Shown one piece after another: positions 17,783-59,542 of a DNA stretch of 64,000 nucleotides. The stretch lies in contig OZ024746.1 in NCBI GenBank assembly GCA_964016885.1, forward strand, positions 9,610,001-9,674,000. The letters run 5' to 3'. The DNA is from Eledone cirrhosa. Its lineage: Eukaryota. How positions within the stretch are numbered: the first letter of the stretch is position 1; every line of letters begins with the position of its first letter. A program made the position numbers and the translations under genes. The notes below the pieces were generated by a model that ran no database searches, was not told the origin of the DNA, and saw only the letters and a list, made by a program, of their open reading frames with translations.

Positions 17783-17829
<47 letters not shown>

Positions 17830-17830
<1 letters not shown>

Positions 17831-18138
17831 TTCGTATTTCTAAAGGAACACGGTTTTAAGCTGTAGCTATGCAAACACTGGGGCTATCGCCCTCTGGTGG
17901 TGTCCAGCAGAAGCAAGGGGGACAACCGTCTATGCATTTCTGGATTGACTGGCCTTCCTCAGGACGGTACCTAAAATTTACAGATACGAGAAAACTATAT
18001 ATTCTCAACTGTTTTCAAATCCAGCAGTTGCAAGCAGTGGGAGGGACCGGTGTTTGCATAGCTACAGCTTCCTAAAACCGTGTTTCTTTAGAAATACGAA
18101 ATTTCTATACATATTTGTATAAAGCTATGCTTGAAGCG

Positions 18139-18143
<5 letters not shown>
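17830..18143. mobile_element. Fold-back element in (TA)n with an internal hammerhead
   Basis: Inverted arms 17830-17878 and 18050-18101, an unpaired ~40 bp tail 18102-18143, and (TA)n on both sides. Confidence 0.7.
17925..17968 (-). ncRNA. Minimal type I hammerhead ribozyme
   Basis: Minus strand ACCGTC-CTGAGGA-AGGCCAGTCAATCCA-GAAA-TGCA-TA-GACGGT. Helix I is 6 bp, the core is intact, helix III TGCA is palindromic, and helix II is weak. Confidence 0.7.
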
Positions 18144-18170
<27 letters not shown>

Positions 18171-18173
<3 letters not shown>

Positions 18174-19380
18174 TTAAGGATACTATTTATGGTTATGTAT
18201 ATACTAAAACTTTTTATAGTTATATATATTTTAAACCCTAAACAGTGAAAGACAGTAATTTATTACTACCTTATTACCAGTAAGATAAATAGCTCAATGT
18301 AATAACATCAGTTGTTCTACAGAGCAGTTATATAGAAATCACATGAATCAAAGTTCTGTTTAAACCATTTATTAGCTTACAATTGTTTCGTCCAAACCGA
18401 GGTTTGGAGTCTTCGGAGCAATTTTTCAATGATTGTTTACATACATGACCTCCTTTCCAACACAAGAGACGTACAGAAACATATGTATATATCGATACAC
18501 AGTGGGGTGACATCCATTATAATATTTTTGCATGGCAATTTAAATTCAAAAATTAAAATCATATTAAAACAAAATTAAAGTTAAAATACAACATCGGCAG
18601 TTTACGAAGATAATGCAAGAGGATAGTTTGTTAGTCAGTTGAAGTAGTTAGTGCATGCAATAGTTACATGTGGGGCATGCACGTGTGTCTTATTTATATA
18701 AGATTATTGTGCGGCAAGGTTTTATATGCAATACAAGCACTTTAAGTGGGTAATCAAGAGTATTATGGGGGTTGTAGTGGTAAAGTATTTTTTATGTATG
18801 ATAAAGAAGCTTGTGTGCAGAGAAATATTATAAATGAGAAGCAAGATAATATTATGGTTTTTGTATGCTTCTCATTTATAATATTTCTCTGCACACAAGC
18901 TTCTTTATCATACATAAAAAATACTTTACCACTACAACCCCCATAATACTCTTGATTACCCGCTTAAAGTGGTTGTATTGCATATAACACCTTGCCGCAC
19001 AATAATCTTATATAAATAAGATACACGTGCATGCCCCACGTGTAACTATTGCATGCACTAACTACTTCAACTGACTAACAAACTATCCTCTTGCATTATC
19101 TTCGTAAACTGCCGATGTTGTATTTTAACTTTAATTTTGTTTTAATATGATTTTAATTTTTGAATTTAAATTGCCATGCAAAAATATTATAATGGATGTC
19201 ACCCCACTGTGCATCGATATATACATATGTTTCTGGATGTCTCTTGTGTTGGAAAGGAGTTCATGTATGTAAACAATCATTGAAAAACTGCTCCGAAGAC
19301 TCCAAACCTCGGTTTGGACGAAACAATTGTAAGTTAATAAATGGTTTGAACAGAACTTTGATTCATGTGATTTCTATATA
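18171..19380. mobile_element. 1.05-kb palindromic element in (TA)n with a hammerhead-like motif on both arms
   Basis: Arms 18329-18843 and 18866-19380 with a 22-bp spacer and a few substitutions between arms. Unpaired ~158 bp tail at 18171-18328. The mirrored ORF-track peptides (18328-18513 and 19196-19462) confirm the symmetry. Confidence 0.85.
19290..19334 (+). ncRNA. Minimal hammerhead variant (mirror copy on minus strand at 18375-18419)
   Basis: GCT-CCGAAGA-CTCCAAAC CTCG GTTTGGAC-GAAA-CAATTG-TA-AG(T/C). Helix II is 7 bp, helix III is palindromic, and the triplet is GUA. The core has U4C in both arms and helix I is short. Confidence 0.6.
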
Positions 19381-22929: not shown

Positions 22930-23479
22930 TGATTACAAACAGAATGTTAAAACTTTGATCTCTCATTCTTATTACACACACGCACATATATACACATATA
23001 TACACACATATATACACATATATATATATGTGTGTGTGTATATATATATATATGTGTGTGTGTATATGTATATATATATATATCATCATCATCATCATCA
23101 TCACCGTTTTACGTCCGTTCTTCCACGCTAGCATGGGTTAGACGGGTTGTCCTGTTGTGGGCAGTGTCTGGTCGGCTGACCATGCCTTGCTCATACAGGA
23201 ACTGATTTGGCTTGATTTCTACAGCTGGATGCCCTTCCTAACACCAACCTCGTTTACAGTGAGTGCTGGGTGCTTTTTTGTGGCGCCTACACGTCCACTT
23301 TAGAGTGTGGGCTGGGTGCTTTTTTGCCGTGGCACCTCCACGACCACCTTGCAGTGGGAGGGTGTGGAGGCATATTGTCTATATGCTTCAGCTTGTACCC
23401 ATGGGAGGTCGGGTACTCTGTATTACTATCATATATATATAATGATAACCACTATGCCTCATGTTTATTCAATTTTTAC

Positions 23480-23542
<63 letters not shown>

Positions 23543-25177
23543 TATGTGTGTACATGCATGTGTAATTGAGCAATTTCATTTTCTGAATTTGTATATTTAA
23601 AATATGAAAAAAAAATCTCCCCCAAACAGTTTCATCTGTCGAACAGTTATGAGTAATTTTACATTGATATGTTTCTGACAGCCAAATATTGTCTGATCAC
23701 TTATTGCTTGTTGGATAGATATGTAGATTTTATGTAGATTCCTTTCCACTTTCCTTCTTTTATTTATTATGTTTTTCTTATATATTGTTTAATGCTTGTT
23801 TAACTTCAGGTATATAGAATCAAGATTAATGCTTTCAAAGATAATTCTGTGAAAAGATGATGATTGCTTTCATCAGTGTCTTTGAAAACACTTTTGACAA
23901 GAGAATGTAAAAATTGAATAAACATGAGGCATAGTGGTTATCATTATCAGCAGTTCCACCAATAATTTACCATGAAGATTGATAAAATGCACAAATGCAA
24001 ATAATATGTTTTTCATGAAAATATTTGGCTTTTTTTTATGACATGTTCTCAAACTATTTTAGCTGTAATTATTATCAACTTTTTTTAAAACAGTATCTTT
24101 ACTATTAAGGTAAAATTATTTGAAAGATAGCAAACATTTCCAGTATTGCAAACTAAAAACTTCTAGTTTTACCTTATCTTGGTACTGAACGTCTGCTCTT
24201 CTGATTGTATCATTGGTTGACACATTGTGACAGCATTCTTAAAATCTGAATGCAGATGATTTCATCCAAAGAATAGGGAATAAAGGAAGAATTAACCCTA
24301 GTACTGAATTGGTGTTTATTAATTGACCTGAAAAGGATGAAAAGCAATGTTAACCTTAACTTAACAGGAATTGAACTCAGAAGGCAGACACTGCAAAATA
24401 TTCTATGTAATGTCCTAACGGTTCTGCCAGCTTGTTACCTTTCTAAACTTATAATACCTGCTCAATGGAGCACCTCTACATATAAATGGAATTCATGTTT
24501 TAACAACTATCCATTTTATTTCCTTGATTTATTCACTCAGTCTACTCTGTAAGGTGGTAGTGCTGGTGCCATGACAAAAAGCACTCAGTCCAAACTATAA
24601 GTTGGTAATGCCAGAGTATGATAAAATGCTCTCAGTACACACTGTAAAGTGCTTGGTTTAAATATATATATATATCCTGAAGAAGGGTTAAATCCTCACA
24701 CGTCAAACTTTCTTTCCCCTTTTCCATATAAAGCGTGAAATTAATAAGACTTTTTGTACCTCTGTTTGTCGTTTCCTTGAACAATATATATATATGTATA
24801 TATATATACATATATATACATATATATATATATATATACATATATATACATATATATATATATATACATATATATACATATATATATATATATACATATA
24901 TATACGGTGCCTTATGATGGTATGTGTATGTATACATGACCCAGTCTACACAGGTGCTTATGCAAGTGCTTGATCTGGGTGCTGACTCTGGGTGTGGTAT
25001 TGTGAAGTCTGTTGGTGCGTTTTAGATGGGGTTATGCTCACATATGTACTGTGAACCTGGGTATGCACAATGAATGTTGGGAAATAGTCTTCCCCTCCTG
25101 GATCGTGATGTCTATATATATATATATCATCATCATCATTTAACATCCATTTTATATATATATATATATATATATAT

Positions 25178-27938: not shown

Positions 27939-27974
<36 letters not shown>

Positions 27975-27981
<7 letters not shown>

Positions 27982-28301
27982 TGTAATAAACAACATAAGG
28001 CAATTATTTCATTTACCAGTGGTTTCTTGAAAGCAAACAAATTTTGCTTTCAATCATCAGAATGAAAAAAATCCTGGTGTATTTATTGACATTGGATTTT
28101 AAAAAAAGGTTTTTTTAAATCCAATGTCAATAAATACACCAGGATTTTTTCATTCTGATGATTGAAAGCAAAATTTGTTTGCTTTCAAGAAACCACTGGT
28201 AAATGAAATAATTGCCTTATGATGTTTATTACATAACTATTAAGCTCTGTAACCTACATAGAGCACTCTTTTTTCCTGGACCTTTCCGACGGAATTACTT
28301 C

Positions 28302-28305
<4 letters not shown>
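27975..28305. mobile_element. Palindromic element in (TA)n with an intact hammerhead on both arms
   Basis: Palindrome 27975-28240 centred at 28108-28109, unpaired ~65 bp tail 28241-28305, and long (TA)n on both sides. Confidence 0.85.
28148..28208 (+). ncRNA. Type I hammerhead ribozyme with an intact core (mirror copy on minus strand at 28007-28067)
   Basis: TTTCATT-CTGATGA-TTGAAAGCAAA ATTTG TTTGCTTTCAA-GAAA-CCACTGG-TA-AATGAAA. Helix I is 7 bp, helix II is 11 bp, helix III is short, and the triplet is GUA. Confidence 0.88.
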
Positions 28306-28367
<62 letters not shown>

Positions 28368-30674: not shown

Positions 30675-31716
30675 TCATCATCATCATCATCATCAACGTT
30701 TAACGTCCGTGTTCCACGCTTGCATGGGTTTGGACGGGGGTAGTCCCACTTGAGGCAAGAGTGATTTTCTTGCTCGCATAGGACTGTCTGGCAGGTTTTC
30801 TACAGTTGGATGCCCTTCCTAACACCAACCACATTTACAGTGTGGGTCTGCGAGGTTTTTACCGTGTTGCCTACACGGCCACATTACAGCGTGGACTGTG
30901 TGTTTTTTTATCGTGACACCTACACGATCTCATTTGTTTCGGCCTGGATGGCGCGGTACCAACATAACTTTACATAGAACGGGGTGGTGTGGATGGGGTG
31001 GGGGTGGTGGTGGTGGGACGGGGTGTATTTTGTTAGAGATGCCTACTGGCAAGGCGGGTCTTCTCTATTACTGAGTACCGCCAAAGGTCTCGGTCCAGTG
31101 ACATTGTCTTGGTGAGGTGTAAGTGTGTGAGGTCGGAGTTTATCAGCTCGTCCCAGGTTTTTCTGGGTCTGCCTATTCCGTGGCTACCGTCTATCTTTAT
31201 TGCCCTGCACTTTGTTATACAGCTATCATCCTTCATGCGCATCATGTGACCATACCAACGTAGCCTTCTCTCTAGTAAACAACATCTGATCCCTCTTATT
31301 TCTAATTTTTTCCTTAGTTCGTTTATGCTTTGTCGTTCACGTATATTACTATTACACATCCAGCGGAGCATGCAAGCTTCGTTTCTCTCTAGTCTGCGTA
31401 TATCCTCTGCACACAATGCCCATGTCTCACTGCCATGCAACATTGCTGTTCGTATGCCGGCATCGTACAGCCTGCCTTTCATTTTTAGGGAGAACCCTTT
31501 AGCGGCTAATAGTGGTATAAGCTCTCTGAACTTTTTCCACCCAGTTCTGACTCTAGCTACTGTACTTTCAGAGCACCCTCCCCCACTGCTGATTTTGTCA
31601 CCCAGGTAACGGAAGCTGTCCACTATTTCTATAGAACCCTCTGCGCAGTTGAAGAGCTAGTATTTTGTGGGCACTTGCTGCTACTTATATCCCCAGAACA
31701 CCGGCCACATGTAAAA

Positions 31717-31943: not shown

Positions 31944-32793
31944 ATATATACATATATATATATATATGTATATTATAAAAATGTTGTACCCTACAGTTAA
32001 GCTTTTACCATTCCAATAACAGGTGAACTGATTCTAATTTGATTCAGCTTGTTTCAAAAGTATCTCTTCAGGGGCATGGTTATAGTGTGACATATACATA
32101 TATATGTACACACACACATAGTAGATTGAAAACAATTCATATTTAATTCATCTTTTGTTTTCAGTTTATCTTATGCTTGTGGCTATTGTTGGTTGTTGTG
32201 ACTGCAGTTCAATGACATTAAATGTAATTGTAATTAAATTTCCTATTGCTTTTACTGCAGTCTTTTCCTTGTTGCTCACACTGTCTCATTTTTAATGAGT
32301 TACTTTCAATAATTCCTATCACTGTCTCTGCATTACATGCACACATGTTCACACCTTCTCAAGGTGTACCAGAAGTGGAAGGTGGGGGTTGATGTGGTGT
32401 GTGTATGCAGGGAGAGGATTGGAGAGATAAGTCTGTGGGATATTTAGTGATGGGGACAAGTGTTAAGACATGGAAGCTGTTTCAAAGTGCCTTTTGGCAG
32501 GATAGATATATTATATATATGTGTGCATGTGTGTATGTAAATACACCTTGCTAAAAGAGAAAGTGTCTGTTAAACGATGATTTTTTGAAAAACATTGTCT
32601 GTGACTTTGAAGTGATAATGATTGCAGAAATGTAATCTATAATAAATATATTGATACTGACCTCAAAATTCATATATTCGTTTTATATCTAGGTTATTTG
32701 GTAATTTTGTTGATTACTGGAGGCGACACTGAAATGAGCCTTCGATGCTATAGCAGAGAGTACATATTTTGTATGAGGTAACAGTTTCACATG

Positions 32794-33033
32794 AAAATAT
32801 TTTTATTGCATATTGAACATTACATGTTTCACAAATGGTTGGCTGAAGCACCTTATCAATATGATAGACCTGACTCCAATATCAATCTGCTTACCAAACG
32901 GTTGAACTCAAATCAAACCATTGGGGGAATCTGATAACATAATTCTGAAGTCAGGTCTATCACTTCGATACAGACCTCAAGCCAATCATCTGTGAAACAA
33001 ATGTAACATTCAATATGCAATAAAAACATTTTT
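32794..33033. mobile_element. Old diverged fold-back element
   Basis: Imperfect inverted arms ~32794-32878 and ~32946-33033 (TTTTTATTGCATATTGAA/TTCAATATGCAATAAAAA and TGATAGACCTGACT/AGTCAGGTCTATCA). Each arm has a GAAA-CA(A)ATG-TA-like hammerhead 3' half. Confidence 0.55.
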
Positions 33034-33241
33034 AAATGAATCTTTGTTATCACATACATAATATATGTATATTAACAAATAAGTCTTGCAAACTGTTTCA
33101 CTTTGAAAAATTATTGGGTGTCTGGAACTCAAATAATATAAAGTTATCTCCTGAGCCATAATCTTAGACATGCTGCAAGCTATATTCTTAACATACATCA
33201 ATTTAGTAATGTTTGCTGAAGGTTTCATGTACTCTTTCATT

Positions 33242-39519: not shown

Positions 39520-39890
39520 AGAAAACAAACGAGGAAGAATATATTGAGACAGATGGCACTAAGGAATACTGGTGAAACCTGAAAATAAAAACGGCCACCA
39601 AATTAAAGCACAACCGGCCTGATATTGTTGTTTGGGACCACACATTGAAAACGTGTTCTGTTGTGGAGATCAGCTGCCCACTTGATGTAAACGTTGTCAG
39701 AAAAATACAGGAGAAGGAGGACATCTACGGACCATTGATGAGGAGTTTACAAATCCAGTATCCAAGATACACCTTTTGCTTCATACCCATCATTATTGGA
39801 GCTACGGGTTATATACCAACTCGTTTGGACCAAAGTATGACTGAACTTGGATTTGCGGACAAAGAGCGCAGCTCCCTAATTCATAGTCTA
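39520..39890 (+). pseudogene. Restriction-like endonuclease domain fragment of an R4/Dong-like non-LTR retrotransposon
   Basis: EYW*NLKIKTATKLKHNRPDIVVWDHTLKTCSVVEISCPLDVNVVRKIQEKEDIYGPL..FIPIIIGATG shows the RPD...E..(K..K..Y) signature. One in-frame stop. Embedded in (TACA)n. Confidence 0.8.
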
Positions 39891-40081
39891 TATACATATA
39901 TACATACATACATGTATACATACATACATGCCTTTTTGTACATAATATGTTAACAAGCCAATGAGTATACATGGATAAGATATTCCCTCAATCTACTGTT
40001 AATGCTATGTACTAACATAGCCGCCAAATGGCCTTCAAGTTATGCCCTACTGTCTTGACAAAAGAAATGACATATTAGATA

Positions 40082-42761: not shown

Positions 42762-43004
42762 GTGAAGGTGCATGGCTTAGTGGTTAGAGCATTGGGCTTG
42801 CAATCGAAAGGTTGCGAGTTCAATTCTCGGACCGGGTGATGTGTTGTTTCCTTGAGCAAGACACTTTATTTCTCATTGCTCCAGTTTACTCAGCTGTAGA
42901 AATGAGATGATAGGACTGGGGTCCCTATCATTAAATCACCCAAGACACCTCCAACGAGATATAACTTGGAGGAGGCCAGCTAAACCTGCATAGGTGTGAG
43001 CTGT
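42762..43004 (+). mobile_element. tRNA-derived SINE (family S2, CORE/V-like body)
   Basis: TGGCTTAGTGGTTAGAGC A-box, GAGTTCAATTC B-box, and TCCTTGAGCAAGACACTT body motif. Confidence 0.85.
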
Positions 43005-43139
43005 CACACACATTAGTTGTTAATGTTTCCTCATTTCCCATTCCTTGTCAAAAAACTTGCTTATGTGCTACAAGGTTCCTGTGGCTTCTCACAAGGTGTT
43101 GGCTATACTAGAAGACACCTGCTAACAGTTGTTGTTGTT

Positions 43140-43372
43140 ACAGCTCACACCTATGCAGGTTTAGCTGGCCTCCTCCAAGGTATATCTCGTTGGAGGTGTC
43201 TTGGGTGATTTAATAGGGACCCCAGTCCTCTCATCTCATTTCTACAGCTGAGTAAACTGGATCAACGTGAAATAAAGTGTCTTGCTCAAGGAAACAACCC
43301 GGTCCGAGAATTGAACTCACAACCTTTCGATTGCAAACCCAATGCTCTAACCACTAAGACATGTGCCTTCAC
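43140..43372 (-). mobile_element. S2 SINE, inverted partner of 42762-43004
   Basis: Close reverse complement ending at the same 3' point, with a ~135 bp spacer. Confidence 0.85.
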
Positions 43373-49644: not shown

Positions 49645-49645
<1 letters not shown>

Positions 49646-49891
49646 AACATTCACTTCTCAAACATCTGGTTCTAGATTGGAAATGTTATATCTACTCTAG
49701 CCTTGGGTTGACCAATACCTTGTGATTAGAAGTTAGTAGGTGAAAACTGTGCAGCAGAAATCTGTGCTGTATATATCATCATCATCATCATCACCGTTTT
49801 ACATCCGTTCTTCCACGCTAGCATGGGTTAGACGGGTTGTCCTGTTGTGGGCAGTGTCTGGTCGGCTGACCATGCCTTGCTCATACAGGAA

Positions 49892-49935
<44 letters not shown>

Positions 49936-50057
49936 CACAGATTTCTGCTGCACAGTTTTCACCTACTAACTTCTAATCACAAGGTATTGGTCAACCCAAG
50001 GCTAGAGTAGATATAACATTTCCAATCTAGAACCAGATGTTTGAGAAGTGAATGTTT
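49645..50057. repeat. Perfect 126-bp inverted duplication
   Basis: 49645-49770 and 49932-50057 are exact reverse complements by eye. The spacer is a (CAT)n-tailed retroelement fragment plus (TA)n. Confidence 0.9.
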
Positions 50058-58997: not shown

Positions 58998-59357
58998 TTT
59001 TAATATTGAGAGAGAATTTGCTATAGAAATTGGGCTATTGTTGTCTTTCTATGAAGAGTTCTTCTGCATTATAAATCTTAAAAGCATCACATTGTTGATA
59101 CACACAACTTTCACTCTTTCTATTTTCAAAGTGAAAGAACATATAACTTTTTAAAAATTTATATAACATTATCTTAACAAGAATTTTTAATAAATACTTT
59201 TTTAAAATGTCGACAAACAATAAATTCTTAATTTTTGTTGTTTGAAAAATATCAATGATTATATATAAATTATAAATCTTAGATATTAATTTTAGATTTA
59301 AGTGTTTTAATTGCAACCACAAATCTATAACTTTCAATTTGTGTATATATATATGTA

Positions 59358-59542
59358 TAATATAGAAATAGCTTCTACAGGACTAGAACTGTTTCATTTG
59401 GGAGAAATCATCAGATTTTTTCTCCCAAATGAAACAGTTCTAGTCCTGTAGGAGCCATTTCTATATTAAATATTTATACTCTGCTATGAATTGAGTACCT
59501 TAATTACTGTGGTTACCCCCTGATTGCACCCAGGATAAACTT
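59358..59542. mobile_element. Fold-back element in (TA)n, truncated within its hammerhead
   Basis: Arms 59358-59407 and 59419-59468 with a ~74 bp tail. The minus strand reads CTGATGA-TTTCTCCCAAAT-GAAAC-AGTTCTA-GTC-CTGTAG, with the 5' strand of helix I missing. Confidence 0.7.

Follow-up and report, generated by a model that had tools for sequence, protein, structure and literature searches.

The mirror-image pair of hammerhead motifs described here is best explained by a single retrotransposon insertion, in which two head-to-head, 5′-truncated ends of a Penelope-like element (PLE) would have entered a TA microsatellite by twin priming on a capped, uncut RNA. We give this reading a probability of roughly 0.7. 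The pair lies in a window of 64,000 nucleotides of the Eledone cirrhosa genome (assembly GCA_964016885.1, contig OZ024746.1, positions 9,610,001 to 9,674,000 of the forward strand), to which all coordinates below refer. Alone, the locus is of little weight, being one among thousands of copies. The statistics of its family bear on an open question, namely how the inverted ends of PLEs are built and what role their hammerheads have.

A mirror-image insert with two type I hammerhead motifs

The whole insert is ~330 bases long, and its palindrome (27975–28240) consists of two arms of 133 bp each, which differ by one T/A substitution and in the lengths of homopolymers. The left arm (27975–28107, minus strand) is an inverted, 5′-truncated pLTR that lacks a tail and ends at the family's upstream end site, as do 35 of 91 copies; the (TA)n target microsatellite beside it (27949–27977) shares a few bases with the end of the arm. 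The right arm (28110–28240, plus strand) is likewise a 5′-truncated pLTR, with 96% identity to the 5′ pLTR of the long copy L047, and is the only one to carry the 64-bp PLE tail (28241–28304, plus strand), which in long copies runs into the leader and ORF. Between the arms stand two G residues (28108–28109, plus strand), a recurrent 5′ stop base and one extra G that is absent from the parent. The right-hand microsatellite follows at 28305–28364, and a target-site duplication is not readable within (TA)n.

Each arm carries a 61-nt type I hammerhead motif, at 28148–28208 on the plus strand, with the predicted cut 3′ of A28201, and, identical letter for letter, at 28007–28067 on the minus strand. 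Helix I (7 bp, 28148–28154 with 28202–28208) and helix II (11 bp, 28162–28172 with 28178–28188) close the core, and the ends of the motif are joined in helix I, as expected of type I. The consensus CUGANGA / GAAA / NUH is matched by CTGATGA (28155–28161), GAAA (28189–28192) and the GUA that comes next, in which A28201 is position 17; helix III (28192–28200) is palindromic and reads ACCA-C-UGGU. The initial annotation had described the intact core, both helices and the mirrored copy, and we confirm every coordinate; it was also correct that read-through RNA from either direction holds one ribozyme motif together with its antisense. The annotation had passed over three points, namely the short helix III, the one-sided 64-bp continuation on the right, and pair 10.1-11.1, which is U-A and not the usual, although not universal, G10.1-C11.1; many of the Hydra hammerheads listed in PMC8557442 also lack G-C at this position.

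The 61-mer folds into a three-way junction with a minimum free energy of -13.6 kcal/mol (z -2.33; 5 of 200 shuffles were equally good). A hammerhead descriptor returned four hits in the real window against none in 60 block-shuffled windows, the four being the 28007/28148 pair and a second pair at 1955/2120. Rfam produced no hammerhead match at the gathering threshold and none among 69 matches at E<=10; its hits below threshold are generic hairpin models. The sole Rfam hit at the gathering threshold, a tRNA, comes from two inverted copies of a tRNA-derived SINE at 42762–43372.

Helix III has a computed energy of +0.4 kcal/mol as a monomer hairpin and -8.2 kcal/mol as an intermolecular duplex, and two same-strand 61-mers cofold as a swapped dimer at -36.2 kcal/mol, versus 2 x -13.6 kcal/mol for separate molecules. 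With so short a helix III, these models suggest that cutting likely needs a same-strand dimer partner, a part that the mirror copy is unable to play. Dimers of PLE hammerheads are reportedly treated by Lunse et al. Swapped dimers are described for PLE hammerheads, with weak cutting in vitro. The minimal metazoan PLE hammerheads of Cervera and de la Pena 2014 (PMC4209133) are alike in their short palindromic helix III, long helix II and predicted dimer, but differ from the present motif with its U-A in place of the usual G10.1-C11.1, its 11-bp helix II and its 7-bp helix I. The same source noted in 2014 that Schistosoma has hammerhead pairs on opposite strands, 100-700 bp apart.

The arms belong to a Penelope-like retrotransposon family

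A search of the 3.0-Gb genome yielded 1146 candidate copies of the arm, the best 40 of them at 97-100%, and exact matches numbered 529 for a core 27-mer and 3413 for a downstream 29-mer, with reversed controls giving 0. The arm is thus a young dispersed repeat, the pLTR of a Penelope-like retrotransposon family. Copies end at two sites, unit position 133 (35/91) and positions 195-197 (42/91), and these two end classes reflect a 64-bp tail that is optional on one end, as in PLEs. Sequence upstream in the copy L017 is an endonuclease-like fragment; it served to choose 20 long loci, and in 16 of them, by our own reading, the arm lies within 10 kb. L047 has the direct order pLTR-hammerhead-tail-ORF-pLTR, and in L036 and L033 the pLTR is followed by the tail and leads into the ORF.

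The frame in L036 has 710 codons, with two internal stops, and contains RWK, DKT, YRDD, CxCX5C, VxY..YVG and CxxC; CPH is present in L047 and others, and altered in L036. As judged from these motifs, a single ORF codes for a reverse transcriptase (RT) together with a GIY-YIG endonuclease at the C-terminus, the arrangement of EN+ PLEs. A protein search gave 2908 homologues at E<=1e-20, nearly all without a name, and a Pfam scan of seven proteins gave no RT or GIY-YIG family and only weak, unrelated matches. The pLTRs bear hammerheads, as PLE pLTRs do, and are arranged directly in L047 and inverted in 59 pairs.

Several features are those by which the Hydra clade was defined by Craig et al. 2021 (PMC8557442): RWK, DKT, the CxCX5C linker, CxxC with CxH instead of CCHH, and insertion into (TA)n. 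By our own rule, TA/CA repeats follow 86 of 97 precise ends, and three of the remaining 11 run on into the leader. Hydra elements tend, not strictly, to be <3 kb; the pLTR starts of L047 are 4.35 kb apart, a distance that takes in a 3′ part rich in microsatellites and probably a nested insertion. On its motifs and its by-eye likeness to Hydra-1_Obim of Octopus bimaculoides, the family would belong to the Hydra clade.

According to PMC8557442, Hydra-1_Obim shares RWK, DKT, CxCX5C, CxxC/CxH, the (TA)n target and a canonical hammerhead near its 3′ end, with a helix III of the same form (acca-a-tggt, against acca-c-tggt in the present family), and the N-terminus of L036 resembles that of Hydra-1_Obim by eye. 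However, helices I and II are different, and its protein has clearly diverged, as seen by eye and not by computation. Moreover, that source lists Hydra-1_Obim as 'no pLTR' and it is <3 kb long, whereas the present family has a pLTR and tandem forms, and L047 is ~4.35 kb. As far as sequence can tell, then, this is a separate, new PLE family of a known kind of element.

Two other assignments were rejected. The Naiad clade, which was first suspected, is out, given the C-terminal endonuclease and the canonical hammerhead. A non-LTR retrozyme is made of head-to-tail tandem units, each with a hammerhead (bioRxiv 10.64898/2026.07.22.740005), but the arms at the locus are head-to-head and form no tandem array.

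Mirror pairs carry a tail on exactly one arm

Two samples of loci were drawn. The 100 core matches listed first, out of 529, represent 89 distinct loci, of which 88 made up sample 1; with flanks of ~1.5 kb, it contained 32 inverted pairs, one direct pair and 55 single arms. Sample 2 added 62 loci, taken from the 87 downstream matches listed first out of 3413, with the loci of sample 1 excluded and flanks of 0.6-1.5 kb, and contained 27 inverted pairs and 35 single arms. Inverted pairs thus occur at 59 of the 150 sampled loci, and all 59 are head-to-head, or divergent, with variable junctions. Exactly one arm bears the tail in every one of the 54 pairs that could be classified (two tails 0, none 0; five unclassed), for which p is ~1e-16 against independent ends. 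The mirror is a by-product of insertion. Four copies with an identical junction and a spacing of ~28 kb (L129-L132, G000:C1:399.28-399.36 Mb), entered as four singles in sample 1, are a segmental tandem duplication and not independent insertions.

An inverted, 5′-truncated copy with a one-sided tail is a published PLE layout (PMC8557442, PMC3846280). In these sources, as in the legend to Fig. 2 of PMC8557442, the inverted pLTR copies are likewise head-to-head, with a tail at one end and a simple-repeat target. Their tails are 30-40 bp long, compared with 64 bp here, and their one-sidedness is worded as 'often' or 'optionally', in contrast to the strict 54/54 found here. A further difference from the copies in PMC8557442 and PMC3846280 is the fixed 5′ stop with an extra G, a feature of the present family.

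A recurrent 5′ stop, an extra G and a probably uncut template

The 5′ ends of arms are clustered, with 20 of 96 lying within 10 nt of one G that is 45 nt upstream of the core; the same 20 are drawn from 61 arms whose stop falls inside the reference. The parent has a T before this stop G. Among 58 arms, genome-wide, with a base other than T at that place, the base is G in 51, A in five and C in two, by our own count, and the GG at the centre of the insert (28108–28109) is one case of the stop G with an extra G. Some such arms adjoin (TA)n directly, and in some pairs both arms have the G. On inspection of 42 arms with the extra G, neither the partner arm nor the parent could be its source in 19, one or other was a possible source in 15, seven were unclear and one was a point change.

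In L1 and SVA, untemplated 5′ G residues have been interpreted as copies of the RNA cap (PMC4859970). By this analogy the extra G is likely to be a copied RNA cap and the stop G the start of the RNA, so that the sister copies would probably record the RNA start of the element. Alternatively, a fixed stop may have had one base added to it by a brief fold-back. The ATG lies 312 nt downstream of the inferred start. Both pLTRs of L047 (minus strand) have a strong polypyrimidine tract whose last letters are CAG, in the manner of a 3′ splice site, and which precedes the inferred RNA start by ~30-40 nt; some PLEs keep a pLTR intron.

Arms that begin at the cleavage site, after A28201, are nearly absent: among 96 arms there is one, in L254, which is doubtful, and three more begin inside helix III. 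The RNA that was copied was therefore likely uncut. Two further loci, L194 and L258, have direct junctions: within a few codons of the start of the ORF the upstream copy breaks off, and the join falls at or close to the inferred 5′ end of the RNA, with an extra G in L194. This suggests template jumps that build tandems.

How the mirror could arise

Under the preferred reading, the RT-endonuclease would nick both strands of the (TA)n target, and cDNA would be begun at two sites 64 nt apart, which in RNA coordinates are ~+131 and ~+195. The two cDNAs would pass the intact hammerhead toward the RNA 5′ end, the second would displace the first, and their 3′ ends would afterwards be joined. PLE RTs are not known to have RNase H, and one RNA could hence be copied twice. 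The hammerhead would belong to the life cycle of the parent, in which it is predicted to cut weakly as a same-strand dimer or with the help of protein.

Variants shared between arms argue for one source per insertion: at 28186, a C/T variant site, the two arms agree in 26 of 26 pairs (chance ~0.51 each), and at 28214 they agree in 25 of 27, where the source means one locus and not necessarily one RNA molecule. Such sharing of subfamily variants in 26/26 pairs would also follow if, to make the mirror arm, one cDNA (or else an antisense template) had folded back and primed itself at the weak TTTTAAAA palindrome that lies close to the 5′ end. This alternative has something like a one-in-five claim on the data. 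A junction at the TTTTAAAA quasi-palindrome does recur (11 clear cases among 42 arms), the partner arm could supply the G at 15 of 42 GG junctions, and the nearly equal arm starts in 15 of the 29 sample 1 pairs are predicted by fold-back as well. Moreover, self-priming has been proposed for rotifer PLEs in PMC3846280, which favors it.

However, if a tailed first strand had folded back, the tail-less arm would be contained within the tailed one, yet in 16 of 54 pairs it extends further 5′ by more than 12 nt (8/29 in sample 1, and 8/25 in sample 2, whose 25 pairs were counted by hand), and the tailed arm does so in 6/54 (three in each). In several cases the tailed arm starts at the tail or within it (L123, L137, L145, L240, L257), and some back-to-back ends 0-2 nt apart both have the extra G (L195, L209, L215). 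This pattern favors two primings, one per end site.

An experimental parallel for two primings is PAc, a Poseidon element of Anolis carolinensis (Frangieh et al. 2024, PMC11167929), which uses an AT-rich target, primes both strands in vitro at two start sites that bound the tail, and copies uncut RNA. No strand difference in start site was seen there, a result that does not bear out strict one-tail coupling in vitro. PAc differs in belonging to another clade and in having a hammerhead that overlaps the ORF start, whereas here the ATG follows the inferred start by 312 nt.

A stricter version would hold that every insertion uses each RT start site once, on opposite target strands, on one capped and uncleaved RNA that starts 45 nt upstream of the hammerhead; we put its chances at even. 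If it is true, a transcription start has been mapped from DNA alone, twin priming with strand displacement is favored over self-priming, and an apparently conserved ribozyme leaves the copied RNA uncut. The exact RNA start, the two priming sites and the one-tail rule are all checkable in the existing in vitro PLE system. In a literature search that left most subscription papers outside, no report was found of a cap-derived G or an obligate one-tail rule in PLEs.

The hammerhead within the long hairpin

The initial annotation had proposed that a long hairpin competes with the ribozyme fold, and that folding kinetics or RNA editing might decide between self-cleavage and long dsRNA. The competition is real in our models, but lopsided. 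With arms of 133 bp, the whole element pays ~73 kcal/mol when it is constrained to the hammerhead fold, compared with ~2 in a single arm, these being equilibrium computations and not kinetics. Because the arms diverge, the antisense copy is transcribed first from either direction, and in folds of successive prefixes the hairpin zips from its centre before the core has been transcribed, which lends no support to a fine kinetic balance of the kind suggested. Hence, if the locus is read through, the hammerhead in the RNA is predicted to be trapped within a long duplex.

Co-option as a regulatory element whose outcome is set by folding kinetics or A-to-I editing is accordingly very improbable. In its favor, neither motif is damaged, the 133-bp arms can form a nearly perfect hairpin, and a duplex of this length, if transcribed, would be an ADAR substrate. 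Against it, the antisense copy precedes the ribozyme in transcripts of either direction, the two folds lie 73 kcal/mol apart, the same arrangement recurs at 59/150 loci, and an intact motif is expected in any copy 2-4% from its sisters. Divergence between paired arms, 79 of 2735 bases in 27 pairs (2.9%), is like that between loci (3.0%, or 2.2% once three polymorphic columns are dropped); 75 arm differences are private, and non-majority letters common to both arms number 9. Paired arms start alike and then drift apart, and since they come to differ like unrelated copies, the hairpin looks unselected. In a look for a host gene, the 28 long frames of the window are, by eye, microsatellite or retroelement fragments. 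Four sequencing runs from one study had very high depth for the family, with no listed contig bridging the centre of the locus, and so speak neither for nor against its assembly. A search for expression listed no RNA data set, which weighs neither way. The locus is likely to be ordinary insertion debris, and a regulatory switch is unlikely. If transcribed, such stumps may supply this genome with long dsRNA in large amounts.

Selection on the hammerhead itself was assessed in 49 copies chosen by sequence downstream of the motif, with variants counted if they occurred in at least 4 copies. Shared variants occupy 6 of 29 columns before the motif. Inside it, the only places with such variants are loop II, the pair closing that loop, position 7 and two sites compatible with G-U pairing; those at 28186 and 28206 give G-U wobbles, and the 11 invariant core positions have none. 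Fisher tests give p = 0.007 for disruptive columns and 0.16 for the core alone, where columns are non-independent and homopolymers cannot be aligned with certainty. The tests give modest evidence for upkeep of the hammerhead fold in active lineages, and not at 28007–28208. The copies ending at positions 133 and 195-197 were left unused as evidence on selection because they had been picked by motif matches.

A MITE or fold-back DNA transposon with a hammerhead-like motif in its terminal inverted repeats by chance would be short, palindromic, TA-flanked and of high copy number, as this insert is, but it can practically be dismissed, as the ends are asymmetric and the centre varies between copies, where a MITE would have a constant centre between fixed, symmetric terminal repeats, a single arm stands at 90/150 loci within the flanks examined, and in L047 and L036 the arm sequence flanks an RT-endonuclease ORF.

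Other elements in the window

A second, unrelated hammerhead mirror pair spans 1756–2205, with cores at 1955 (minus strand) and 2120 (plus strand) and 1439 candidate copies. Its tail of ~90-110 bp is on one arm only, and a one-tail pattern was found in the pairs seen among 14 loci. A 1052-bp palindrome at 18329–19380, TA-flanked and with 96% identity between its arms, has a variant hammerhead-like motif on both arms; the core reads CTCCGAAGA, followed by a stem and CGAAAC, and the palindrome probably represents one more PLE family, the third, whose core is altered. Sequences at 31033–31656 (minus strand) and 39576–39953 (plus strand) are, by eye, like the C-terminus of a non-LTR retrotransposon RT and a restriction-like endonuclease. 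Finally, short inverted-repeat inserts lie near TA repeats at 17783–18171, 23439–23947, 32764–33064, 49645–50057 and 59348–59478, the last of which bears, at 59414, a minus-strand core of hammerhead-like form.
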